Source of the DNA: Shigella phage KRT47
Direction: 5' to 3' (one strand)
Sequence record: MN781580
Length of the DNA stretch: 64,000 nucleotides
In this document: piece by piece, positions 3,359-39,000 of the stretch
Layout of the letters: every line of letters starts with the position of its first letter
How positions within the stretch are numbered: the stretch's first letter is position 1
Notes under the pieces: generated by a model
What the model was told of the DNA's origin: nothing
Database searches by the model: none
The model's input: only the letters and a program-made list of their open reading frames with translations
Translations under genes and position numbers: made by a program

Positions 3359-4561
3359 TTATTTTGTAATAATGTCAAACTGTTCTTTAAAGCAGAAGCT
3401 TGAATCTTGATGCTGATACAAAAATTCATATGCTTTTTCTCGCTCACGGTCATAAAGAGTTCGGTCAGATGACAGTTCTTTAATACGTTCAAATGTTGAT
3501 TCCATATCATTTTCATCAAACCAAATGATACCGCTATCATGCGAGGTCAAAGGAGTATTATCAACACGGAATTTTAAATTTTCGCCAGTAGATTTCCAAA
3601 ATACCGGAATTGTTCCACATGCACCAAGCTCGAGATGAGTATATTCTAAAGAACGTTGTAGATATTTTTTATCCAACTTACTCAGCTGATAACCAAATCC
3701 GGATTTACTCATGCGTTCAAGCATTTCGCTATTTACATAACGGTCGAGAATTTGCGTTGGCAAATTAGGAGCAATTTTAATTTGGTCTACTTGATGAAGA
3801 CGATAATACTCGTATGGAATTCCTTTTTCTTTAATAGGAATGAACGCTGGAGAACGTTCCAGACCTTCCATAATAGTACTTAGTCCTGCAGGTTTAAGAT
3901 GTTTTTCGTGAAAATCAAACATCTGATAAAAACCTTTCCATGTAGTCGTACGACCAATCCAACGGTTGATATTCATGTTAATTTCAGAAACATCTTTCCA
4001 GTAGGTTGATCGAACCTTCGCAATATCCATAGGAGGCTGAAAGTTATATATGGTCGGTGCTTCTTCAATATCATCAAACAGAGAAACAGTTTCTGGATAC
4101 CACTCTTTCATCAGAACTTTATTAAAATCACCATTATCAGAATGGCTAAAAATAACATCAGCTCGACGAACAGTTTCTTCTAATCCCAAATTTCGACGCA
4201 AAGAAAGAGAAGAATGGTCATGCTGATAAACTACAACACGAACCGAAGGTTTAATGTTATCAATAATTTTTTTATAGTTATTAATAGTGTCTTCTTCAAC
4301 CGAAGTAGCAGGAACTGAATTGATAATTAGAATATCACAATCATTTACCAGCTTAAGTGTTTTATCATATTCTTTTGCCAATAAAACCGGAATTGAAAAT
4401 GATTTATAATCATGCGCGCAATTACGAGTAAATGATTTATCTTTAGCATAAACCAAAGTCACTTCATGACCATTTTTAATAAACCAATCACGTTGCTCGA
4501 GTGAGAATTTTGTTACACCACAACCTTCAAGACCTCGAGCCATAAAAATACATACTTTCAT
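3359..4561 (-). CDS. a-gt: DNA alpha-glucosyltransferase (glucosylation of hydroxymethylcytosine)
   Basis: 400 aa; N-terminus MKVCIFMARGLEGCGVTKF matches recalled T4 alpha-gt; same length. Confidence 0.88.
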   Translation of the reverse strand: MKVCIFMARGLEGCGVTKFSLEQRDWFIKNGHEVTLVYAKDKSFTRNCAHDYKSFSIPVLLAKEYDKTLKLVNDCDILIINSVPATSVEEDTINNYKKIIDNIKPSVRVVVYQHDHSSLSLRRNLGLEETVRRADVIFSHSDNGDFNKVLMKEWYPETVSLFDDIEEAPTIYNFQPPMDIAKVRSTYWKDVSEINMNINRWIGRTTTWKGFYQMFDFHEKHLKPAGLSTIMEGLERSPAFIPIKEKGIPYEYYRLHQVDQIKIAPNLPTQILDRYVNSEMLERMSKSGFGYQLSKLDKKYLQRSLEYTHLELGACGTIPVFWKSTGENLKFRVDNTPLTSHDSGIIWFDENDMESTFERIKELSSDRTLYDREREKAYEFLYQHQDSSFCFKEQFDIITK

Positions 4562-4585
4562 TTAATATCCTCTTTGTTTTGGTTT

Positions 4586-4611
4586 ATTTTACCAAAAATT
4601 TATAAAGCAAT
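4586..4611 (-). promoter_or_regulatory. candidate MotA-dependent middle promoter for a-gt
   Basis: minus strand reads ATTGCTTTA (MotA-box-like), 11 nt, TAAAAT, about 25 nt upstream of the a-gt ATG. Confidence 0.4.
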
Positions 4612-4614
4612 ATA

Positions 4615-4628
4615 GGAGCCGAAGCTCC
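4615..4628 (-). terminator. GC stem-loop (ggagccgaagctcc)
   Basis: perfect palindrome with cgaa/uucg loop in the intergenic region. Confidence 0.45.
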
Positions 4629-4801
4629 TATCCGCATAATACGCCATACAGAGGCTCGTTAGAACTTTTAAATTTTATGCGCTTATATTTTATAGTTCCT
4701 TCTGCTTTAGCTTTATCATGAGACTCTTTAAAGCGTCTCATCATTTCTACTTTAGAGGAACGAATTTTATTATAATCTATTTCAGAAGTCTGGGTGTTCA
4801 T
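4628..4801 (-). CDS. hypothetical small basic protein (57 aa, below ORF-track cutoff)
   Basis: ATG at 4801 to TAG at 4628 on minus strand, translation MNTQTSEIDYNKIRSSKVEMMRRFKESHDKAKAEGTIKYKRIKFKSSNEPLYGVLCG; fills an otherwise empty 240-nt gap. Confidence 0.35.
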   Translation of the reverse strand: MNTQTSEIDYNKIRSSKVEMMRRFKESHDKAKAEGTIKYKRIKFKSSNEPLYGVLCG

Positions 4802-4804
4802 CTT

Positions 4805-5011
4805 TCATAACTGCCACCATTTTTTGACTTGATAAGAATCAACCCACACTTTCATATTAGGGTCTGCTCTTACAATAGGAGGATTAACTTCTTTAATTGA
4901 ACTATCATGGTATTCTTTTTCAGAAATTTTCACACAAAGATGACCATTCAAAGATTCAGTAAATCCTGCATTAATTTTAAGACGCTTGAATTTTACGTGT
5001 GTAAGCATCAA
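4805..5011 (-). CDS. hypothetical protein
   Basis: 68-aa ORF, minus-strand operon context. Confidence 0.5.
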   Translation of the reverse strand: MMLTHVKFKRLKINAGFTESLNGHLCVKISEKEYHDSSIKEVNPPIVRADPNMKVWVDSYQVKKWWQL

Positions 5012-5294
5012 TCATATCCTCAATTTGCGATCTAGTAGTCTTCCAAAGAATACTGATGAGTTCATCGTTATATGGCTGTTTTAGAATATCCCGACTTTTC
5101 TTGATAGCATATTCGTATTGAGCAAAATTATTATTTTCAGCTGCGATCTGAGCGTGCTTATAAAGACGATTCAGTTCGCGTTTGTTTTTAGACAATAACT
5201 TATTTGCTTTTCTTTCTGCTTCAAGACGGTTCTTTTCTTCAATAGAAGAAATAAGCTTTTCCACTTCATCATTAATTTCGGGTTTATCAGTCAT
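4977..5294 (-). CDS. hypothetical protein (coiled-coil rich)
   Basis: 105-aa ORF, K/E-rich. Confidence 0.6.
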   Translation of the reverse strand: MTDKPEINDEVEKLISSIEEKNRLEAERKANKLLSKNKRELNRLYKHAQIAAENNNFAQYEYAIKKSRDILKQPYNDELISILWKTTRSQIEDMIDAYTRKIQAS

Positions 5295-5295
5295 A

Positions 5296-5514
5296 TTATT
5301 TCTCTAATATAAAATAAAAATCATCATCTGTTAAATGATACCGATAGTTTAATTCTACACCATTAGATTTAAAAGCGGTATCATACGGATTTTCTGGATC
5401 AATATCAATGTCAAGAGCTAAAACTTCCCTGAGATACATTTTAAGTAAATAGGGAATAGCTTCAACTTCAGGTATTTCTTCCAAGAATCCGGAGAGGTTA
5501 ATCGTTAGCCTCAT
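5296..5514 (-). CDS. hypothetical protein
   Basis: 72-aa ORF immediately downstream of gp55. Confidence 0.55.
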
Positions 5515-6055
5515 ATAAAAAATCCAAACTAGGAGAATCGTCTACAACACTTTTCTTTTCAGCCCCCGGTGTTCTATAGGTTGATTCTTCGTAATGCGTC
5601 ATTTTATCATAGATGTCTTGAATAAAAGTTTCATCTACTAACGCAACCATATCGTCGTCACGACTGTCATAGACATTGTGAACGAAGTAACTATATTTCT
5701 TTGCAACTTCCTTACGTTCTTTTTTAATACGTTGGACGAATGCATTAAAACAAGCTTGAGTTATATACGCATGTGGGTTTTTATATTTCGTTTCATCAAA
5801 ATTATGAAGCCCCTTAATAGAAGCTTCTATACCATCTGCAATCATTTCTTGTTTCCAAGACTGGGTGTATCCTGAAAAGTTGAAACGTTTAGATAAGCCT
5901 TCTGCAATAAGCATAATGGCTAATCCGATAGTATCATTCTGACGAACTACTTTATTTGGGTCTTTATTATTTGCTAATTCTGTTTTCCAATCAATAATAG
6001 CTTGTAAAAGCTCTTTATTGTTTACGTAATTATATTTAGGCTTAGTTTCTGACAT
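5498..6055 (-). CDS. 55: late-transcription sigma factor gp55
   Basis: about 185 aa from [20 protein letters not shown]; matches recalled T4 gp55 N-terminus and length. Confidence 0.9.
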
Positions 6056-6133
6056 TTTCACCTCTTAGCTCAATTCATAGATCTATTATATCATAATATT
6101 TGAAGATCTATCTTAAAGCATAGAGGATATCAG

Positions 6134-6403
6134 TTATCTAAGTAAACAGTATGCTTGGAACACTTTCTCCATCATCTTTTTAAATTCATGAATATCTATG
6201 TAATGACTAGTTAAATCAGCATGATATAAAAAGTCTAAAAACTTTTCATGTGTGCTAACATATTCGCTTTCATTTAATTCAGAAACATGGCTTTCCCAAT
6301 ATCCAACACCAGTCTTATTTGGGAAAAATGAAATTTTCATGTATTGGTCAACATAGAAAATGCCATAATTTTCAATAGTAATAGAAATATTAATAAATTT
6401 CAT
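6134..6403 (-). CDS. hypothetical protein
   Basis: 89-aa ORF. Confidence 0.6.
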   Translation of the reverse strand: MKFINISITIENYGIFYVDQYMKISFFPNKTGVGYWESHVSELNESEYVSTHEKFLDFLYHADLTSHYIDIHEFKKMMEKVFQAYCLLR

Positions 6404-6621
6404 ACATTCATCAACTTAGCCGCTCCAAGAGCTGCATCTAGTGAATCAAATTGATCAACATATTCAATCAATTCGCCGTAATTGGCATATAACCACCATT
6501 GGCTAAATTCATACTCAAGGATGAATCCATTTCCTTCAATTTGAGTTAAACCAATGCCATTTGTATTTACTTCATACCCAGCAAGACGTAAATCGTTAAT
6601 AAGAGCTTCGTTCATATTCAT
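6400..6621 (-). CDS. hypothetical protein
   Basis: 73-aa ORF, start/stop overlap with neighbours. Confidence 0.6.
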   Translation of the reverse strand: MNMNEALINDLRLAGYEVNTNGIGLTQIEGNGFILEYEFSQWWLYANYGELIEYVDQFDSLDAALGAAKLMNV

Positions 6622-16545: not shown

Positions 16546-17469
16546 TTAAAATTTAAGTAAATCGATAATTTTAATTAAATTTTCACGCTCAGATTTAGCT
16601 TTACTGCTTAATCCAGACAATCTAAAAATTTCATCATCGTATTGCTGAATAGAAATATTTAGCTCTTCTATTTGTTTACTGAAATAATCAATCTGCTCGG
16701 AATATTTTTCATTACTACGAACTGGAACGGGTTTTGTTGGCAAGTCAATCTTATTCTCATTGACTTCAACCGGACGATAAATTAAAATACAATTTGAACC
16801 AATTGGGCATTTTGCTCCAGATACATATTCTAGTGTTCCGGCTTTCTTTAAAACCTCAAAAGCTAAGCATAGATGGTATCCCATATTAGCATAATCGGTT
16901 GAATGCGCCCTGATGTAATAATCATCTTGACGAATACTAAACTTGAAGCATTTAAGTTCTTCTGTATTATTCGTTTTAAAGATCATTTGTTTATCTAGGC
17001 CTGTAGCTAATCGAGCTCCTAATGCCAACAATCGACGCTGATTTTCCCACAAATCAGTAATCATTTGATCAAATGATAGTTTTGGCATTGGACGACCGTA
17101 AAGATCATAGCCTTTGTTATAATTGCGAAGAATTTCACTTGCATTAATACGTGATAACGCTCCAATTTTATTAAGCGCTTTCATAATACGATTAGACCAC
17201 CCCATCCCAGACCCATTAGTTCGTCGCAAGTGTTTTTCTAATCTAAAGCCAATATCAATATTAAACGTATCTAAAATTTCATTACGAACATCTTGTTCAA
17301 TGATACTAAAATTAAATGTTGGGTTAAGTCTATAAAAGAGCTGATCTGCTTTATCGTGATTAAGTACAGTCCATTCATTTAATTTTTTATTAACTAAAGA
17401 TTTAATTACTGCATTAACATTATTAATTATTACTGACATATTATTTTCCTCACTCAATTTCGGTTTCAA
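16546..17469 (-). CDS. hypothetical protein with C-terminal coiled coil (tandem set member 1)
   Basis: 307 aa; C-terminal heptad-like tail. Confidence 0.7.
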   Translation of the reverse strand: MKPKLSEENNMSVIINNVNAVIKSLVNKKLNEWTVLNHDKADQLFYRLNPTFNFSIIEQDVRNEILDTFNIDIGFRLEKHLRRTNGSGMGWSNRIMKALNKIGALSRINASEILRNYNKGYDLYGRPMPKLSFDQMITDLWENQRRLLALGARLATGLDKQMIFKTNNTEELKCFKFSIRQDDYYIRAHSTDYANMGYHLCLAFEVLKKAGTLEYVSGAKCPIGSNCILIYRPVEVNENKIDLPTKPVPVRSNEKYSEQIDYFSKQIEELNISIQQYDDEIFRLSGLSSKAKSERENLIKIIDLLKF

Positions 17470-17863
17470 TTAATTTTGCTAGTCTAAATATAATATAACA
17501 ACAAATATAAGCACCACACACAGATTGAACTAATACCATTCCAAAGAACCAAACAATATTATCAAACAATGTCTGTTTTACGTCGAAAGGACGTAAACTT
17601 ACAGTAATATTATCGCCTTTTTCTATTGATGAATACATCTCTGGTGAAATATATTCGCTAAATCTATAACCGTCTTTGAGTTCATATACAGCAATAAACG
17701 ATAAACTAGACCCCTTTCCTTGAGTTCCTGTAAGGGTATTAACTACAGTAACATCATAATCTTTATAATGCATATAATCATTAATTGCGTAATAACCATA
17801 TGCAACTACTACACATAAACAGCATATCAATAAATTCAATCTTTTAATTATCAACTGTTTCAT
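17450..17863 (-). CDS. membrane protein
   Basis: 137 aa; hydrophobic segments at both termini. Confidence 0.65.
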   Translation of the reverse strand: MKQLIIKRLNLLICCLCVVVAYGYYAINDYMHYKDYDVTVVNTLTGTQGKGSSLSFIAVYELKDGYRFSEYISPEMYSSIEKGDNITVSLRPFDVKQTLFDNIVWFFGMVLVQSVCGAYICCYIIFRLAKLIETEIE

Positions 17864-19993: not shown

Positions 19994-21007
19994 TCATTTA
20001 TAATAACTTCGGTGGTTTTCAAGATAAACCTTCTCAAGGAAGTCATCCCAGAAACTCATGTCTACTTTTTGCTGCATACCGTTCTTAGAAGCTTCAGTAG
20101 ATGCTGCTTCTACTTGATCAACCACATCTTCCAAAAACTCTTGAACCGTTTTAAATGGATGTTTACCTAACTTCACGTCGAGAATAAAGGGAGCATCTTT
20201 GAGTGGATAAATCAAGTCGCCAGTTTTGTAAATTTCCAATAGTTGAAGTCCACCACGACAAGCATGACTCAGAGCTTTCCAATCAATACCTTCATTAGCT
20301 TCGGCTTTACGAGCACGTTCACCATATTCAGCATCTAATTTGTTCAGTGACTGCTTAAGCTCAATAAGAGAAAGCGTTGTCTGATATTTACGACCCAATA
20401 CAGTGTAGAACGTTTGTGGACCTGTTTTCTCATGATTATGGAACACCCATTCACAGAATTCGTTTTCTGGAAGACGATGCTTAATATCTTCAACTTTAGT
20501 GCGACGCTGCTTAATAGAACCATCTTCTTGGTAATCAACCCATTGCTCAGGGATTTGATTAACTACTTTCAATACATCGCGTAATGCAGCCAAACGAGAA
20601 CCCTTGACACCGTATTTAGAAGCTTGCTTGCGAACATATCCTAAATAGGATTTCATGTTAGTCGTATAAAAACGAGAACGGTTGTCTTGAATAAACTTCC
20701 ACACGTCAGGCAAATCAGATTTAACCACTAGTTCAGGTGGAGTGTGAAGCATATCCAATGCTACAGTTTCACCATCTGCTGCTAATTTAAAGAAATATTT
20801 AAGACTGTATAGTTCATGGTCAATATCATCTTTAGTGTTTTTAGATGATGTGTTATTAGTGTTTTTACTCATGTGCTCTTTGACATTTCCGATAAGAATA
20901 TCACGAGCAGGAGGAACAAAAATTTCTTTAAAATCTACATCAGATTCTGGGGTAGAAGTTCCATAAAGATGACTACCAAAATAGCTTTTCATTACTGTTT
21001 TCATCAT
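19994..21007 (-). CDS. nucleotidyltransferase-fold protein (pol-beta/CD-NTase-like motif)
   Basis: 337 aa; N-terminal GS-x10-DVD motif (YFGSHLYGTSTPESDVDF) and a later acidic DDIDHE segment. Confidence 0.7.
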   Translation of the reverse strand: MMKTVMKSYFGSHLYGTSTPESDVDFKEIFVPPARDILIGNVKEHMSKNTNNTSSKNTKDDIDHELYSLKYFFKLAADGETVALDMLHTPPELVVKSDLPDVWKFIQDNRSRFYTTNMKSYLGYVRKQASKYGVKGSRLAALRDVLKVVNQIPEQWVDYQEDGSIKQRRTKVEDIKHRLPENEFCEWVFHNHEKTGPQTFYTVLGRKYQTTLSLIELKQSLNKLDAEYGERARKAEANEGIDWKALSHACRGGLQLLEIYKTGDLIYPLKDAPFILDVKLGKHPFKTVQEFLEDVVDQVEAASTEASKNGMQQKVDMSFWDDFLEKVYLENHRSYYK

Positions 21008-21465
21008 TCAGCCTTATATTCAATAACAGGACATACTTTAGCTTTACGAGCTTTTAAAAATTCAACGATAATCGATTTCTTGGGTTGAATAGGAGGTAAA
21101 CCTTTATACGCCCTATCAATATTTTCTATGTGTAAAGCATAATCCTTTTTCCATTTATAATCTTTATATTTTTCATGCAAATGTGCAGGAATAACAAATG
21201 AACCAATAATAAGTAAAACAAGCAAAATGGCAAGTATAAATGCTGATGGAATAAGAGTCCATAAACTACCAAAAATAAGCCATTTCTGTATGATTTCTGC
21301 ACAGATAATAGTTAGACCTGCGAGTATAGTACATCCGAAAAAAGAAACGAAAAATGTAGGAATAACAACAGACCAAAAATATGCACACAGTGTCTTAGGT
21401 CGTTTCCATTCATCATTAAACATTTTGAATAATTTATAGTGCCAAGAGTTTTCATTAATAATCAT
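21004..21465 (-). CDS. integral membrane protein
   Basis: 153 aa with at least three long hydrophobic segments. Confidence 0.7.
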   Translation of the reverse strand: MIINENSWHYKLFKMFNDEWKRPKTLCAYFWSVVIPTFFVSFFGCTILAGLTIICAEIIQKWLIFGSLWTLIPSAFILAILLVLLIIGSFVIPAHLHEKYKDYKWKKDYALHIENIDRAYKGLPPIQPKKSIIVEFLKARKAKVCPVIEYKAE

Positions 21466-29844: not shown

Positions 29845-30318
29845 TTATTTGAACGATTTAACGTACTGAATAGAACCTTTACTATTTACAAAGGCAATTT
29901 TACCATTTTTATTATACATGGTAGCAGTACGTTGATAGCCATAAGTTTGTTTACCAGATTGATAACCAACTAATGCAAAATTATCTTCACCCATTTTATT
30001 CTGTTTAGCGCGAATGCGTTCATGACCATGTGCCATAAGAACCTTAGCGTCGCCAGTTGCAATGGATCTACGAGTTTTTTCATCTTCAACTGTATTAACA
30101 AAGTCGTCAAATGAATCAAATTTAGCATGAGATTTATTATACAGTTTTCCATCTACTGCATAATTATATCCCTGTACATCCATCTCAACTTCTGTACCAT
30201 CATCCAATACAGCAGTGATTTTTTGACCTTTTTTAAATTTCAAAAGATCAGTAAAAGATTCAGCAATAATTTGAGAATTAATAGCTGCTTCAGTAATAAA
30301 TTCTTGATATGTTTTCAT
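29845..30318 (-). CDS. internal (capsid-packaged) protein with capsid-targeting sequence
   Basis: 157 aa; N-terminus MKTYQEFITEA matches the T-even internal-protein capsid-targeting sequence. Confidence 0.75.
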   Translation of the reverse strand: MKTYQEFITEAAINSQIIAESFTDLLKFKKGQKITAVLDDGTEVEMDVQGYNYAVDGKLYNKSHAKFDSFDDFVNTVEDEKTRRSIATGDAKVLMAHGHERIRAKQNKMGEDNFALVGYQSGKQTYGYQRTATMYNKNGKIAFVNSKGSIQYVKSFK

Positions 30319-30334
30319 GTGTATCCTTTAATTT

Positions 30335-30652
30335 TTATTCTTTAGGGAAGTTTTTAGAATATGCATCATAAAGCTTATTTCCAATACGGCGGAAAACTCT
30401 AGCAGCAAAACGATTTTCTGGGTTTTTAATCATGATTTGCATCATATAAGTACCCGCGTCAGAAAGAGCTTCTTCATAGTACCCGTTAATTTCTTTAAGA
30501 GTCCTACGTTTACCACCAGGACCATCAACAGTGATTTTCCATTTACCTGTAGAAGTGCGACTTGGCGGCTCAACTTGTTCAATCCAGATATAACCGCCTT
30601 CTACACGTTGTCCTGCAGCAGATTCTGCAATAAATTCTTTATACGTTTTCAT
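30335..30652 (-). CDS. internal (capsid-packaged) protein with capsid-targeting sequence
   Basis: 105 aa; N-terminus MKTYKEFIAES. Confidence 0.75.
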   Translation of the reverse strand: MKTYKEFIAESAAGQRVEGGYIWIEQVEPPSRTSTGKWKITVDGPGGKRRTLKEINGYYEEALSDAGTYMMQIMIKNPENRFAARVFRRIGNKLYDAYSKNFPKE

Positions 30653-31709: not shown

Positions 31710-31728
<19 letters not shown>

Positions 31729-32198
31729 TCAGTGATAAAATTATTTAAATTTTGAGTATATTTCTTTTCATCAAAAATCTTTTGCTGCCTACGTAACCGC
31801 CATGGCATTTCAATGAACACGCACCATATTCCTGATAGTACTGCTGCTGTAAAAATATTAACAAGTATAATTAAAAGAATCCAATCTTCCGTTCTGCCTA
31901 CTGGACTTTCTCCAAAGAAGCAAAATACAAATGATGTCACAGGAAAACTAATAATATACCACAGAATAACCTTCTTATCTGTGAACCAATCAGCGTTCGT
32001 TAACTTAGCACGACCATTTTGAATACACACGAATTTATCATCTGTTACAGTAGATGGCTTAACTGCTTGATATCCCATTCTAAACTCCCTAATTAATCGT
32101 TTCTTTGTATCTTCAGAACAGCCGCTCCAGTCAACTCTATCGACTGAAATGCCATCGTCCCCATCATCTAAATCATACCAGCGAGTTTTTAAAATCAT
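31710..32198 (-). CDS. membrane protein
   Basis: 162 aa; two or more hydrophobic helices. Confidence 0.6.
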
Positions 32199-32269
32199 TT
32201 GATTTTCCTACAATCATTCACGAATTCTTTCATTGATTCATTTTCAATATAAGACATGTAGTTATTATA

Positions 32270-32569
32270 TTATTTTAATTGTATTTTGTAATCCTTTTTT
32301 CTTTGCCAATTTATTTTAAAATTATCATAATGAAAATATAAAATGATACTAAAGAATGAAAATAATGAAATTGCTATAGTATAATGAAGTTCACTCCAAA
32401 CTTCTATTATATCTACTATACCGCTGACGTTACTGCGGATGTTTAAAATAATACAGTCAATCATTAATCCAATAAGACTACCAGCAAGAGCTGCAGCCAA
32501 CGCCACAGCAAAAATTAAAAATGACTCAGAAAAAGAATATTTGACTTTATTTAGTTTTGGCTTTTGCAT
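32270..32569 (-). CDS. membrane protein
   Basis: 99 aa; two hydrophobic helices. Confidence 0.6.
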   Translation of the reverse strand: MQKPKLNKVKYSFSESFLIFAVALAAALAGSLIGLMIDCIILNIRSNVSGIVDIIEVWSELHYTIAISLFSFFSIILYFHYDNFKINWQRKKDYKIQLK

Positions 32570-32943
32570 CGTGATTCCTTAACAAATTTCATAATTTCAT
32601 TAAATTCATACATATTTAGTTTAAGCTGGTGTTCCTTTTTAATCTTTTTACACTGAGCTTTCCATTCACGTACACGTTTACGATAATGCCTTCCTTGATA
32701 CCAATATCCTACCCAATTTACAGGTACCAATAAAAATGGAACTACTAATGGAAGAATTAATACTAACAAAAATATTACGCCAGATTCAATATCAGTCATA
32801 AAGTCTATAACCATTCCAACAATCAATAGAATTACAAATGATATAGCTGTCACAGGACCTATTAATACATCAGTAGGAATTAGCTGACGCTTTAGTTCAT
32901 ACTTCACAGGTTCACTTGGAAGGTATAGTGATGGCTTTGACAT
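32551..32943 (-). CDS. membrane protein
   Basis: start at MSKPSLYLP Met with AAGGAA RBS; two hydrophobic helices then basic tail. Confidence 0.6.
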   Translation of the reverse strand: MSKPSLYLPSEPVKYELKRQLIPTDVLIGPVTAISFVILLIVGMVIDFMTDIESGVIFLLVLILPLVVPFLLVPVNWVGYWYQGRHYRKRVREWKAQCKKIKKEHQLKLNMYEFNEIMKFVKESRCKSQN

Positions 32944-33517
32944 ATTCTCTACATTCCTTAACAAATTTTTCTAATAATAAATCGCTTTCAAAATTAGGAT
33001 TTTCTACGAATTTATCAAAAAGATCATCAACAATAGTTAAGATATTCTTTTTACTAAGAATACGTTTATTTTCATGCTTTGTTTCAGAATCAACTATAAG
33101 AGTAAAGAAATATTTCTTTCCCTGAAATTTTACCGTAGTATCAATATAAAATAAATTTGACTTTTGTAAATTACGTTTAAACCATGCGTCACTTAAACTA
33201 TAAACGCCAAGATAATCATAATCGTCGTTTAAATAACAAACCGTCCATTCAGGAGAAATGAAATCAGTAAATTCAACATCAAAATCACATGTCAATGAAT
33301 GAATTGATTCAATACTTTTAATGAGTATTCCAGGACGTATTAAAGACTTTTTACCTTTATAAAATCCAGAAAGACTTTCATCAGTTTCATATGAAGACCC
33401 CCAATAGTAATTACGTCCTTCTGCCATACGTTTAAGAGCATTTAGTAATTGATCTGGAACATCAACCTGTCTTTGGAACTCTTCAAACATTGAATTGAAA
33501 TCACTTTGCATTTTCAT
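32912..33517 (-). CDS. hypothetical protein
   Basis: 201-aa ORF. Confidence 0.65.
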   Translation of the reverse strand: MKMQSDFNSMFEEFQRQVDVPDQLLNALKRMAEGRNYYWGSSYETDESLSGFYKGKKSLIRPGILIKSIESIHSLTCDFDVEFTDFISPEWTVCYLNDDYDYLGVYSLSDAWFKRNLQKSNLFYIDTTVKFQGKKYFFTLIVDSETKHENKRILSKKNILTIVDDLFDKFVENPNFESDLLLEKFVKECREYVKAITIPSK

Positions 33518-33538
33518 TCCTATTTACTCCAAGTAATA

Positions 33539-33552
33539 GGGGCCGAAGCCCC
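33539..33552 (-). terminator. GC stem-loop (ggggccgaagcccc)
   Basis: palindrome immediately 3' of the stop of ORF 33559..34152. Confidence 0.5.
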
Positions 33553-33558
33553 TTATCA

Positions 33559-34152
33559 TTATTTCAGAGAATTAATATATTCCTGGACATCGGCAGAGGT
33601 AGTTTCAACCCCGGAAATATTACCGTTAAAGGTTTCAACTCGAGCAAGGGTATCTTCAATATCAACCTTAGTCAGTGCTGCAATTTCAACTACATCATCG
33701 GCAGTACTAATTCCAAGGGCATTTGCCGCACGAGTTTCACGGATATATTCCAATTTAACTGCAAGTTCTTGACGAGCATCATCTAACTCAACTACTTTCT
33801 TGGCGATTTCAATTCGCATTTCAGCATAACCGTCAGCTTTAGTAGTCAATTGCTCAGATGTTCGACGATATAGTAAACCGAGTTTAGCATGCATTGTTAC
33901 ATCTTGACCTTCGGAAAGAAGTTTTCGAATTTCACGCTCTTTTGATTCGGCCTGTCGATTCTTTTCGATAACAAGTTCACGAATACGTTTTTCTTCATTA
34001 ATAGATTTAATAGAAGCAGTTTTTAGATCTTTAATTTTATCAAGTAGTTTTGCTGCTGCAGCAGTATACTGTTCTTCAACAGATAGATTTTTAGCCATAG
34101 CAGAACCAAGTTTAGTGCGAATAAACTCAACAATTTTCTTCAGTGTGTTCAT
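33559..34152 (-). CDS. coiled-coil protein (PspA/IM30-like architecture, unverified)
   Basis: 197 aa, almost entirely heptad-like and charged. Confidence 0.6.
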
Positions 34153-34209
34153 AGTATTTCCTTAGATTGATACAATTAGATAATATCACGTTTTTAATAG
34201 ATTGTAAAC

Positions 34210-35104: not shown

Positions 35105-35668
35105 TTATTTATCTAGTTTAGTTATTATAGCTTCTGCGGCAGCTTTTAGCTTAGATGCGGTGTTAATACGATTTTTAATTTCAGTATACGCATCGCCAAG
35201 AACATCAAGGCTATCAGAATAAACACTTACACTATTGCGTTCGCTATTTGAAATAGAACCTTTAGTTTTACGATCAAAATCGGTGTACACGTCTTGAAGA
35301 TCACGGGCTGCCTTCTTTGCATCATCCAATGCATCAAGAGCTTTATTCAAAGCATTAACGTATTTTTTAGTGTCGAACATATTCTTAGAAATTTTAACAG
35401 GTGCGCGTTCAGGAGTAGCTAACACAGATTTAGGAACCTGAGCGCCAGATGCCAATTTCTTAGAAATTTTGAAAAATGCTTTGTTGAATTTATTTTCTTG
35501 ACTCATTGTAAAAGAACTATTATCGATGTTGTACATTTCAATAGCTTTAGCTTTCCACTTAAGAAAATCGCCGCGGTCTTTTGGGTCCAAGTGGAAAAAT
35601 ACTTTAGTAAGATCTGCTTCAGATGGTAATTTTGCTGCTTCGGTTAAAAATTCGGCATAGGTTTTCAT
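35105..35668 (-). CDS. internal-protein-like gene with capsid-targeting sequence
   Basis: 187 aa; N-terminus MKTYAEFLTEAAK. Confidence 0.7.
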   Translation of the reverse strand: MKTYAEFLTEAAKLPSEADLTKVFFHLDPKDRGDFLKWKAKAIEMYNIDNSSFTMSQENKFNKAFFKISKKLASGAQVPKSVLATPERAPVKISKNMFDTKKYVNALNKALDALDDAKKAARDLQDVYTDFDRKTKGSISNSERNSVSVYSDSLDVLGDAYTEIKNRINTASKLKAAAEAIITKLDK

Positions 35669-35762
35669 TTAAAATCCTTGAAATAATTTATCGGTTGGTT
35701 ATTAATTATTTATTACTTTGTTATTATCCGTAACAGCATTCTCTATGTGATTCAAACTAAAA

Positions 35763-35786
35763 AGCCCCAACCTTTCGGCTGGGGCT
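35763..35786 (-). terminator. intrinsic terminator
   Basis: gcccca...tttc...tggggc hairpin followed by a U-run on the minus strand. Confidence 0.6.
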
Positions 35787-35793
35787 AAGAATG

Positions 35794-36267
35794 TTATTTG
35801 ATTTGTTTAGCAGACCAAATGCGGTCTTTAATAATCTTTTGGATGTCTTCAACATACTCTAGGTCATGAGCATGTGGATTATCTTTGAAACTATAGGCAC
35901 GGGCTAACTTTTGGCCTTCGGTTTTGATTACTAAAAGCTCTTTAAGGATAGCTTCATATTTAGCGATAATTCCTTTAACAATATTTTTTTCTTGTGCAGC
36001 TTTATGATCTGCTTTAGGAGCAGGTTTACCCGAAGCCTTTGCAAAAGCAGCGCCAGTAGCAACTAAACTTTTCCAGGCCATACTAACTGCATTTCCCGTA
36101 AATCCTTCTGCTTTCATGTCGCGAGCAAACTGGAATCGTGATTCGTCAGAAGCATCTTTATAGGAATATTTACCCGCTGCAATGGCTGCTTTTGCGACAG
36201 CTTGAATTTCGGTGCTAGATGCTTCATTTAACACCGCTTCATTTAAAAATTGAGCATATGATTTCAT
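35794..36267 (-). CDS. internal-protein-like gene with capsid-targeting sequence
   Basis: 157 aa; N-terminus MKSYAQFLNEA. Confidence 0.7.
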   Translation of the reverse strand: MKSYAQFLNEAVLNEASSTEIQAVAKAAIAAGKYSYKDASDESRFQFARDMKAEGFTGNAVSMAWKSLVATGAAFAKASGKPAPKADHKAAQEKNIVKGIIAKYEAILKELLVIKTEGQKLARAYSFKDNPHAHDLEYVEDIQKIIKDRIWSAKQIK

Positions 36268-38814: not shown

Positions 38815-39000
38815 CTATTCACCTTTAGAAATTTTATCCATAACGATAGCAATTAAACCAATTAAAAATGCTACTACAAGTGAAAACACATTTTCTGCTG
38901 TAGTTAATAATCCACATATAAATCCAACAAACATTGAAAAACTAAAAGCAGAAGCAGAAATTGCAATAGCAACATTTCGAATTAATTCACAGCGTTTCAT
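38815..39000 (-). CDS. small membrane protein
   Basis: 61 aa, two hydrophobic helices; preceded by GAGGAG RBS and an early promoter. Confidence 0.6.
   Translation of the reverse strand: MKRCELIRNVAIAISASAFSFSMFVGFICGLLTTAENVFSLVVAFLIGLIAIVMDKISKGE

Follow-up and report, generated by a model that had tools for sequence, protein, structure and literature searches.

In Escherichia coli, the gene for PspA, a protein usually pictured as a host response to phage, adjoins the genes for PspB and PspC, small inner-membrane proteins that each have one TM helix and a cytoplasmic C-terminal helix, and the system also includes PspF. Vipp1/IM30 of cyanobacteria and chloroplasts, a protein of about 260 aa with a specific C-terminal extension, works without dedicated membrane-anchor genes, and in ESCRT-III, which belongs to the same superfamily, a short C-terminal helical motif (MIM) on the ESCRT-III subunit binds the MIT domain of Vps4. 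In Bacillus subtilis, the PspA-family protein LiaH is recruited by LiaI, a small polytopic membrane protein encoded by the adjacent gene (general knowledge, and the partner survey in PMC11237479). Viruses can also carry the superfamily, as in the case of a "PspA/IM30 family protein" of Acinetobacter phage vB_AbaM_ME3 and a "Snf7 family protein" of Megaviridae, both of which are recognised by standard annotation. A literature search turned up no publication that names a PspA/ESCRT-III homologue encoded by a T4-like phage. No lytic phage has been studied more than T4, whose Imm and Sp are small, early, non-essential proteins of the inner membrane or periplasm that act alone. A genome-wide study of 2025 still gave "unknown function" for the T4 genes e.2–e.8, and knockdown of these genes in T4 was neutral in the laboratory (PMC11879866).

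The window analyzed here is a 64,000-nucleotide stretch of Shigella phage KRT47 (MN781580). Five of its minus-strand ORFs, matched to their T4 counterparts, form the e.2-e.3-e.4-e.5-e.6 block of a Tequatrovirus (T4-like) phage: e.2 (31710..32198, 162 aa), e.3 (32270..32569, 99 aa, a truncated allele), e.4 (32551..32943, 130 aa), e.5 (32912..33517, 201 aa) and e.6 (33559..34152, 197 aa). A preliminary description had reported these five ORFs, which are indeed present at these coordinates and all on the minus strand, and had placed them next to the internal-protein genes; this placement is corrected here, as e.7 and e.8 separate e.6 from the internal-protein genes. From e.5 through nudE, consecutive genes overlap head to tail, and the series continues into nudE and then the endolysin gene e. 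The ATG of e.4 lies inside the tail codons of e.5, with a 32-nt overlap in the junction alignment, and the stop codon of e.2 overlaps the nudE start (ATGA). That the genes lie together in a T4 hyperplastic region says little for a shared function.

The assignment of e.6 as a divergent, phage-borne member of the PspA/IM30(Vipp1)/ESCRT-III superfamily holds up at the level of family profiles and predicted structure. The e.6 sequence of the window alone gave no match to PF04012 (PspA_IM30) even at E<=1-10, returning only scattered coiled-coil noise from Pfam, and a single-sequence search of the PDB yielded nothing. A narrow family profile reached Vipp1/PspA in the PDB only at E 2-3, whereas a widened family profile ranked Vipp1/PspA as the top 7 of 177,635 sequences (E 1.2e-4 to 1e-3), a recognition that was gained because distant members from an exhaustive profile search had been added. 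In the best of these alignments (E 1.2e-4), residues 1-146 of the e.6 family lie on residues 1-147 of Vipp1, start to start. Comparison by hhalign with a reference profile built from near-identical enterobacterial PspA sequences and cyanobacterial Vipp1 loci gave a probability of 94% (P 1.4e-7, 167 columns), and the match was abolished in reversed controls (P 0.2-0.3). The similarity to PspA extends over about 170 residues, including the putative alpha0, the hairpin and an ARFESF-like segment ("ARVETF" in e.6 aligned with "ARFESF" in PspA), at an identity to E. coli PspA of ~13%. In addition, 4 of 46 e.6 relatives match PF04012 directly, with a best E-value of 8.9e-10. The e.6 family is closed, with about 45 representatives, and comprises T4-like and Ackermannviridae-type phages; unlike the vB_AbaM_ME3 and Megaviridae proteins, its members are annotated as hypothetical or, in some databases, misnamed "host specificity protein" or "tail completion protein".

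The AF2 model of e.6 is helical over residues 2-145, with a predicted hairpin formed by helices 25-80 and 86-145 (pLDDT about 90), followed by a flexible linker and short helices at 166-174 and 186-196. This arrangement agrees with the ESCRT-III layout (alpha1/alpha2-3 hairpin, linker, alpha4/alpha5), and the earlier characterization of e.6 as almost entirely coiled coil applies to approximately three-quarters of the protein but not to the linker and the two short C-terminal helices of the model. When the model was compared with the PDB using Foldseek, the top 9 matches were Vipp1, PspA and CdvB2 (Vipp1, E 7.8e-4), and the hairpin core superimposed on 6zvs_A at 2.9 A over 122 columns. Its neighbors in a viral structure library included the PspA/IM30 protein of vB_AbaM_ME3 (E 9e-3) and the Snf7 protein of Megaviridae (5.5e-4), so that both CdvB2 and Snf7, which share the ESCRT-III superfamily fold, are among its fold matches. 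Vipp1 is the best match for e.6 in both sequence and fold, shares the hairpin and alpha4/5 layout, with a putative alpha0 in e.6, and is of similar length up to alpha5, although e.6, at 197 aa, is without the Vipp1-specific C-terminal extension. Residues 2-19 of e.6 have a hydrophobic moment of 0.45 (PspA, 0.42; Vipp1, 0.57), a value reached by 6% of shuffles, and the helix is modeled with a pLDDT of about 42. The guess in the preliminary description that the 197-aa protein is PspA/IM30-like, for which it had proposed a profile comparison with PspA/IM30, is therefore supported by the family profiles, by the profile-profile match and its failed reversed controls, by the Pfam relatives and by the predicted fold.

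An early-type promoter-like site was found upstream of e.6 (34180..34208, minus strand), with GTTTACA, a 17-nt spacer, TATTAT and a TG before the -10; it was recognized by consensus scan and direct reading as a match to the T4-early consensus only, and is followed by an AAGGAA Shine-Dalgarno sequence read directly from the DNA. In T4, the e.6 RNA is classed as early, and the block as a whole yields early RNA and detected proteins, including e.6 (PMC9697503 and its supplements). Unlike the E. coli Psp system, e.2-e.6 are encoded by a lytic phage and early-expressed; the phage block is also without PspF, and e.6 itself, unlike PspA, does not match PF04012.

Hydrophobic segments were identified by a Kyte-Doolittle scan with a 19-residue window and a threshold of 1.6. 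Two strong segments each were detected in e.2 (77-95 and 106-124), e.3 (17-35 and 61-79) and e.4 (28-46 and 55-73), which bears out the earlier statement that three small proteins here have at least two hydrophobic helices, and none were detected in e.5, e.6, e.7, e.8 or nudE at the same threshold. At least two strong segments occur in only 6 of the 102 greedily called genes of the window, and three of these six are adjacent in this block; we estimate that random placement would give three such genes in a row ~1% of the time. The e.2 protein begins with an acidic soluble domain of ~75 residues, which is followed by two TM helices in a hairpin and then by a basic tail in the cytoplasm. From its charge distribution and the positive-inside rule, e.4 is predicted to be an inner-membrane hairpin with two TM segments and N-in/C-in topology, and its C-terminus, a basic helix that would be cytoplasmic in this topology, ends with KFVKESRCK, a variant of the tail described below. 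The e.3 of the window is likewise a 2-TM hairpin protein, shortened by a nonsense mutation (GAA to TAA) at codon 100, and alignment with T4 and vB_SsoM_113 shows that it has lost a tail of 21-24 residues that is kept in T4 and other phages, where full-length relatives have 117-123 aa and EFVSDCRKIK as their C-terminus. The remnant coding for this tail (32195..32269, minus strand), read from the alignment in frame past the premature TAA, specifies YNNYMSYIENESMKEFVNDCRKIK and then a stop codon, a TGA that overlaps the ATG of e.2.

The locus resembles the E. coli system in that a PspA-family gene adjoins genes whose small products lie in the inner membrane and have cytoplasmic C-terminal helices, but PspB and PspC have one TM helix where the phage membrane proteins have two, and the sequences are unrelated. 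No Pfam family was matched by e.2, e.3 or e.4 at E<=1, including its superinfection-immunity (Imm-type) family, and e.2-e.5 gave no match in Pfam or NCBIfam to partner families of the PspB, PspC, PspF or LiaI type. The NCBIfam search returned nothing, and a PADLOC search for defense systems returned only sub-threshold noise (E 0.027-0.035).

The four genes downstream of e.6 are connected by a feature that the preliminary description had overlooked. The e.2, e.3, e.4 and e.5 families have in common a C-terminal helix of ~18 residues ending in F-[IV]-x-x-C-R, while the bodies of the proteins are unrelated. In e.5, a soluble alpha/beta protein of 201 aa, this tail is the C-terminal helix at 180-195 (KFVKECREYVK) and the best-conserved stretch of the protein. 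The strict motif is present in 2 of the 316 ORFs of the window (e.2 and e.5; 0.1 expected), in 45/46 e.2 and 35/40 e.5 family members, and in none of 129 ORFs for e.6, e.7, e.8, nudE, e and the internal proteins. Comparison of the e.2, e.3 and e.4 families by hhalign produced alignments at 94-97% (95.6% for e.2-e.4 and 97.2% for e.3-e.4) that are confined to the tail, which rules out whole-length paralogy of the three. Since synonymous codons vary freely at the F, C and R positions, selection on the tail acts at the level of protein rather than DNA, and the same variation, together with variable spacing, led to the rejection of the idea that the motif is a ribosome-binding site, conserved as DNA, for the gene that overlaps it downstream.

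Among 40 diverse loci, e.5 directly follows e.6 in 37 and a gene with the tail motif lies immediately next to e.6 in 38; tail-bearing genes number 0-5 per locus, and every one of them is downstream of e.6. Loss, duplication, disruption or separation by ~4 kb of inserted DNA is common among the membrane genes, and variation across loci extends to genes duplicated in tandem, insertions that separate e.4 from e.2 and frequent pseudogenization, while Aeromonas-type loci keep e.6 and e.5 with no membrane gene nearby. The conserved core of the block is thus e.6 plus e.5, not the membrane trio. In distant phages, the e.6-like gene adjoins replication genes, among them uvsX, a gp41-like helicase gene, a DNA ligase gene or nrdD instead of lysozyme, and relaxed forms of the tail recur on its neighbors against a background of 1-5%, although these matches were spotted post hoc.

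To these observations, a model to which we assign about an even chance may be fitted, in which e.2-e.6 would be a phage PspA/ESCRT-III-type module for inner-membrane maintenance with adaptors that dock through the shared tail. The five genes would act together so that the host inner membrane stays sealed and energized during infection. The e.6 protein would sit on the cytoplasmic face of the membrane by the hairpin and a putative amphipathic helix at its N-terminus and polymerize there, like PspA and Vipp1, and the tail-bearing proteins would be adaptors or regulators docking by the common tail to a single partner, for which e.6 is the simplest candidate; the tail could instead bind a host factor or mediate self-association. 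The membrane hairpins may be anchors or sensors, comparable to PspB/PspC for PspA and LiaI for LiaH, and e.5 a soluble regulator or adaptor. The phage would differ from the LiaH-LiaI pair in having several alternative anchors and a soluble partner that share one tail, with no similarity to LiaI found in the Pfam/NCBIfam comparison, and from Vipp1 in having such anchor genes at all. A short C-terminal helical motif as a common docking element would recall the MIM-MIT interaction, but in ESCRT-III the motif is on the ESCRT-III subunit, whereas in the phage it is on the neighbors of e.6, no AAA ATPase is present and docking is presumed. The neutral laboratory knockdown of these genes in T4 is expected for a conditional accessory module, and the benefit might lie in resealing after DNA injection or superinfection, in maintaining the proton-motive force while lysis is inhibited or in blunting membrane-attacking host suicide effectors. 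A more specific version, which we regard as tentative and unlikely, is that T4-like and some Ackermannviridae-type phages possess an ESCRT-III-like machine of their own, in which polymerizing e.6 would be steered to the inner membrane by fast-evolving, copy-number-variable, tail-docked adaptors, as a viral parallel to the MIM-MIT or PspBC arrangement, and would repair or pre-empt membrane damage, including that caused by depolarizing abortive-infection effectors.

The preliminary description had suggested a module for superinfection exclusion or membrane stress. Given the kinship of e.6 with PspA/IM30, membrane stress is a reasonable functional frame, but exclusion received no positive evidence from Pfam, PADLOC or NCBIfam. 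In an exclusion model, which would extend to resistance against lysis from without, the membrane proteins would stop the DNA entry or envelope damage of later phages, as Imm and Sp do, and e.6 would reinforce the membrane. Three small, early-expressed inner-membrane proteins in a block that is dispensable in single-infection laboratory assays would suit this role and recall Imm and Sp of the same phage type, and damage done to the envelope from without is something that a PspA-like protein could plausibly counteract. Imm and Sp have, however, no sequence relationship with these proteins (Pfam) and no PspA-like partner or shared tail, T4-type phages already have imm and sp, the conserved core of e.6 and e.5 is soluble and the membrane genes are the dispensable part, and an exclusion model leaves the shared tail unexplained; we consider it decidedly unlikely. 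Control of lysis timing, with the module tuning holin triggering or stabilizing the energized membrane in lysis inhibition, falls within the membrane-maintenance model as a special case, and is suggested by the head-to-tail run into nudE and e and by the ability of PspA-family proteins to preserve the proton-motive force, the collapse of which triggers holins. It appears quite unlikely, because the module genes are early and the lysis genes late-acting, the T4 holin and antiholin genes t and rI lie elsewhere, and the distant e.6-like genes are found beside replication genes rather than lysozyme.

Other explanations detach e.6 from membrane remodeling or from its neighbors. It is unlikely that e.6 functions alone or with e.5 only, next to tail proteins that interact with a host target or among themselves and have accumulated by duplication and recombination: the tail-bearing gene beside e.6 in 38/40 loci, the relaxed tails near distant e.6-like genes in otherwise different contexts and the status of the tail as the most conserved part of e.5 all weigh against independent neighbors, even though the variable copy number, tandem duplicates, e.4/e.2 insertions and frequent pseudogenization are what such accumulation would produce and the sharing of the tail alone fits a short recombining cassette spread over unrelated genes. 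Mimicry of the host Psp system, with e.6 as a decoy that binds PspF or PspB/PspC and silences or hijacks the phage-shock response without remodeling membranes itself, can appeal to homology covering the N-terminal region and hairpin, where PspA is known to bind its partners. An identity of ~13% to E. coli PspA, a family distributed over phages of hosts with differing Psp systems and Ackermannviridae-type phages, and the early arrest of host transcription by T4, which would make control of a sigma-54 operon of little use, render it very unlikely, and neither e.5 nor the tails are accounted for. Extremely improbable is the view of e.6 as a generic coiled coil, a scaffold or virion component whose resemblance to PspA is a compositional artefact, as the noise in single-sequence Pfam scans and the names given to some homologues might imply; the loss of the hhalign match on reversal, the specificity of the PDB ranking for Vipp1/PspA among all coiled coils, the four relatives matching PF04012 and, with respect to a structural role, early expression weigh against it.

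With its unrecognized PspA relative and the four tail-sharing genes behind it, three of them for small membrane proteins, this T4-type phage may have its own kit for host-membrane integrity during infection. If the model is true, a phage family that is both large and in medical use would be seen to supply its own protein for membrane repair or remodeling, reversing the usual picture of PspA, and mechanistic work would gain a compact ESCRT-III-like system in which the adaptors are defined and the docking motif is short. It would also suggest a new class of counter-defense against membrane-targeting abortive-infection systems and give a concrete experimental handle on five orphan T4 genes. Should only the homology hold, this would still allow several hundred phage genes now listed as hypothetical or misnamed to be re-annotated.

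A 975-nt "e.5" in vB_SsoM_113 had the appearance of a natural e.5-e.4 fusion, and was rejected as such because it arises where an A5 run has lost 1 nt, and no other locus shows it. Between e.6 and e.5, a tetraloop hairpin (GGGGC-UUCG-GCCCC; 33539..33552, minus strand) begins 6 nt past the e.6 stop codon, ahead of a GGAG Shine-Dalgarno sequence and then the e.5 start. Hairpins of the C(UUCG)G type occur in T4 intercistronic regions, and this one, which has no U-tract, is probably an RNA stabilizer or processing barrier rather than a terminator.

The window belongs to a Tequatrovirus (T4-like) genome, and 675 phage records match the 5.6 kb around e.2–e.6, with a best identity of 97.6%. The five minus-strand ORFs of the preliminary description, which had read them as a membrane-protein trio accompanied by a PspA-like coiled-coil protein, were all found exactly as described; by synteny and annotation they are the counterparts of T4 e.2 (31710–32198), e.3 (32270–32569), e.4 (32551–32943), e.5 (32912–33517) and e.6 (33559–34152), placed between nudE/e and e.7/e.8 with the internal-protein genes. 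Each falls in a separate PHROGs family of unknown function, and a search of e.2–e.6 against a local Pfam copy, which does not contain PF26876, returned no match; PF26876 is a precomputed Pfam tag on all e.5 homologues (proteins P0209–P0222). The GC content is 0.28–0.31 across e.3–e.5 (32000–33500) vs. ~0.35 in the flanks, in keeping with a hyperplastic or exchangeable stretch.

Single-sequence searches of Pfam and the PDB with e.6 did not recognize PspA. Because the window protein itself lies below the Pfam threshold, its assignment as a divergent protein of the PspA/IM30/ESCRT-III superfamily is made at the level of the family and of the modeled structure, where four mostly independent lines of evidence make it very probable. 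Exhaustive searching of 1.84 billion representatives with the family profile delimited a closed family of ~45 members, all ~200 amino acids long. When distant members were added to the profile, the E-values for Vipp1/sll0617/PspA in the PDB went from 2–3 to 1.2e-4–1e-3, and with this widened profile these proteins were the seven best of 177,635 PDB sequences, aligned start to start (1–146 with 1–147). Profile–profile comparison by hhalign with a reference of E. coli-type PspA and cyanobacterial Vipp1 bore out the proposed PspA likeness (94% probability, P 1.4e-7, 167 columns), pairing “ARVETF” of e.6, in which T174 and F175 are invariant, with “ARFESF” of PspA; reversal of either alignment left P 0.2–0.3 over only 23–29 columns. 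PspA_IM30 of Pfam is matched directly by 4 of the 46 family members (best E 8.9e-10), one being P0064, encoded on a 156-kb T4-like contig. In the AF2 model (mean pLDDT 73.5, core ~90), e.6 is predicted to comprise an N-terminal helix (residues 2–22), putatively amphipathic to a degree comparable with the PspA and Vipp1 helices, a long helical hairpin (25–80 and 86–145), a disordered linker and two short helices (166–174 and 186–196). Foldseek comparison of this model with 350,542 PDB chains placed Vipp1, PspA and archaeal CdvB2 in the top nine positions, and the hairpin core superposes on 6zvs_A at 2.9 Å over 122 columns.

By hydropathy scanning, e.2, e.3 and e.4 each have two strong hydrophobic helices, as the preliminary description had proposed, and e.5, e.6, e.7, e.8 and nudE have none. 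At least two strong hydrophobic helices occur in 6/102 window genes, three of which are adjacent here (estimated chance ~1% under random placement). Their charge distribution and the positive-inside rule suggest that e.2, e.3 and e.4 are hairpins of N-in/C-in topology, in which a short loop faces the periplasm and a basic C-terminal helix lies in the cytoplasm.

A C-terminal tail, a helix of ~18 residues with the motif F-[IV]-x-x-C-R, is common to e.2–e.5. The e.2 tail ends in ten residues (not shown), and the C-termini of full-length e.3, e.4 and e.5 are EFVSDCRKIK, KFVKESRCK and KFVKECREYVK, respectively. Among 316 window ORFs the strict motif occurs only in e.2 and e.5, both times C-terminally (0.1 expected from shuffles); the ORFs at 17450–17863, 21004–21465 and 38815–39000 (minus), the only other window ORFs predicted to have two hydrophobic helices, lack it. 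Across 40 viral loci with e.6 relatives (49–99% identity), the motif was found in 45/46 e.2-family, 35/40 e.5 and, in relaxed form, 10/10 e.3 ORFs, and in 0/129 e.6, e.7, e.8, nudE, e and internal-protein ORFs; 17 more matches among 845 other ORFs all lie inside the block downstream of e.6. When the e.2, e.3 and e.4 families are compared by hhalign, only the last ~18 residues align (94–97% probability, P 1e-7 to 3e-11; reversed controls, P >= 0.019), and e.5 shares the tail more weakly. Within the e.5 family (12–46% identity), only N97 and the motif F and C are invariant, and R nearly so. A disguised ribosome-binding site was ruled out by free synonymous use of the Phe, Cys and Arg codons, with all six Arg codons occurring, and by variable spacing to the next start codon (−32 to +457 nt). 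Judged from the sequences, the tail is a specific feature under protein-level selection.

A relaxed tail, I-[IV]-x-x-[A/T/C]-[R/K], was noted after the fact at or near the C-termini of genes adjoining distant e.6-like genes: L087 has three in a row downstream, L133 has two, L128 has FIDECK, and L132 has two 7–8-TM proteins immediately upstream. The background in 552 unrelated ORFs is 1.1% (R form) or 5.1% ([RK] form), and these tails provide only a lead. In L132, a distant metagenomic contig, the 7–8-TM genes (4271–5933 and 6001–6600; C-termini ...MIINEARSN... and ...SIIEHSKRN...) may encode a polytopic version of the tail-tagged partners. The three genes after P0064 in L087 (7661–9123) resemble mutual paralogues with a common ...FW..F....FPKV... 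core, two having an N-terminal membrane anchor; their tails are ILANAR, IVHRAR and IVFITR.

In the 40 loci, the gene after e.6 is an e.5 homologue in 37 and bears the tail motif in 38, both exceptions being broken e.5 genes. The membrane genes vary: e.4 is present in one to three tandem copies or missing, e.3 is restricted to close relatives, and e.2-family genes number one to three, often with ~4 kb of small inserted ORFs between them and e.5/e.4; in Aeromonas-type loci e.6 and e.5 are retained and no membrane gene lies close by. Because the e.5 neighbor is kept while the membrane genes vary, the conserved core is e.6+e.5 rather than the membrane trio.

The window e.3 is truncated, relative to T4 and vB_SsoM_113, by a GAA-to-TAA nonsense change at codon 100 (32270–32272), which looks recent because the 24 downstream codons (32195–32269), including the FVNDCR tail, are intact and in frame; its loop region also has a 12-nt insertion relative to T4. 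In the T4 reference (NC_000866; 2992–3461), e.2 is annotated as 102 aa vs. 162 aa for the intact form, and two compensating single-base indels 78 nt apart return the tail-coding end to frame; either the laboratory strain carries a double-frameshift pseudogene or the sequence contains an old error. The 975-nt “e.5” of vB_SsoM_113 (L001, 3339–4313) is an e.5–e.4 fusion caused by loss of one A from the A5 run that immediately precedes the tail codons (window 32943–32964); its absence from the 40 other loci makes a mutation or a homopolymer sequencing error the probable cause. This A-run also precedes the e.4 start, itself inside e.5, in every close relative.

Upstream of e.6 are a promoter-like site of the T4-early type and a strong Shine-Dalgarno sequence. 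Between e.6 and e.5, 3′ of the e.6 stop, a C(UUCG)G hairpin lacking a U-tract (GGGGC-UUCG-GCCCC, 33539–33552, minus strand) may make the e.6 transcript more stable than those of the genes downstream. Head-to-tail overlaps link e.5, e.4, e.3 (intact form), e.2 and nudE. The longest nudE ORF begins at 31728 (MQEIKMKTL...); the 146-aa NudE annotated in other records has an ATG overlapping the e.2 stop (ATGA, 31713–31710), which suggests that translation of e.2 and nudE is coupled. In T4, e.4 and e.5 have early RNA and early protein, and e.2 and e.6 early RNA and protein with middle kinetics (PMC9697503 supplements). Laboratory fitness is unaffected by CRISPRi-ART knockdown of e.2–e.8, genes of unknown function in that study's listing (PMC11879866 supplements).

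With e.6 homology, gene linkage, the common tail at the protein level and early expression established, a model can be proposed in which e.6 would assemble on the cytoplasmic face of the inner membrane, like PspA and Vipp1, and the tail-bearing proteins would dock through their common helix to one partner, in the simplest case e.6. Membrane anchors or sensors, like PspB/PspC and LiaI, would be the role of the hairpin proteins, and e.5 would be a soluble adaptor or regulator; the likely benefit, under certain conditions, would be to keep the membrane intact and sustain the proton-motive force while infection proceeds. Membrane genes that vary in copy number and often decay, as in e.3 here and e.2 of the T4 reference, fit redundant, fast-evolving adaptors. 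The whole model, from membrane assembly through tail docking to conditional membrane maintenance, has an even chance of being correct.

Among the less likely rivals, the view that e.6 is merely a coiled coil has on its side the single-sequence searches, and against it the reversed hhalign control, which preserves composition and heptad periodicity. Functionally independent neighbors would accord with the changeable membrane genes and less readily with the tail-bearing gene next to e.6 in 38 of the 40 loci. Mimicry of the host Psp system by e.6 draws on the same homology as the proposed model. The other two rivals are superinfection exclusion, already suggested in the preliminary description from the gene arrangement, and lysis timing, for a block just upstream of nudE and e.

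The closest known systems are PspA–PspBC, LiaH–LiaI and Vipp1, and ESCRT-III MIM–MIT docking offers an analogy for tail docking. The partners e.2–e.5 have no sequence relation to any known Psp or Lia component. Within the limited literature covered, no paper was found on T4 e.6 as PspA-like or on phage-encoded PspA in T4-like phages, which the foundational superfamily paper does not mention. In a viral structure library, a handful of viral proteins already bear a PspA/IM30 or Snf7 annotation, and e.6 relatives, also present in Ackermannviridae-type phages, are labeled “uncharacterized” or mis-named. Within this known kind of system, e.2–e.6 would be a PspA/ESCRT-III-type module carried by a phage, novel in its set of tail-tagged partners. 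In some databases, e.6 homologues (P0003, P0034, P0036; BFVD A0A5Q2F7S5) go under “host specificity protein” or “tail completion protein”; given the PspA-type fold and early expression, these names are probably annotation errors that have propagated.

Four minus-strand ORFs (29845–30318, 30335–30652, 35105–35668 and 35794–36267) open with the internal-protein capsid-targeting-type sequence MK[TS]Y.EF..E, with two on either flank of the e/e.x block, unlike the T4 order ipII–ipIII–e; strong terminator-like hairpins lie 3′ of both ORFs at 35105–36267.
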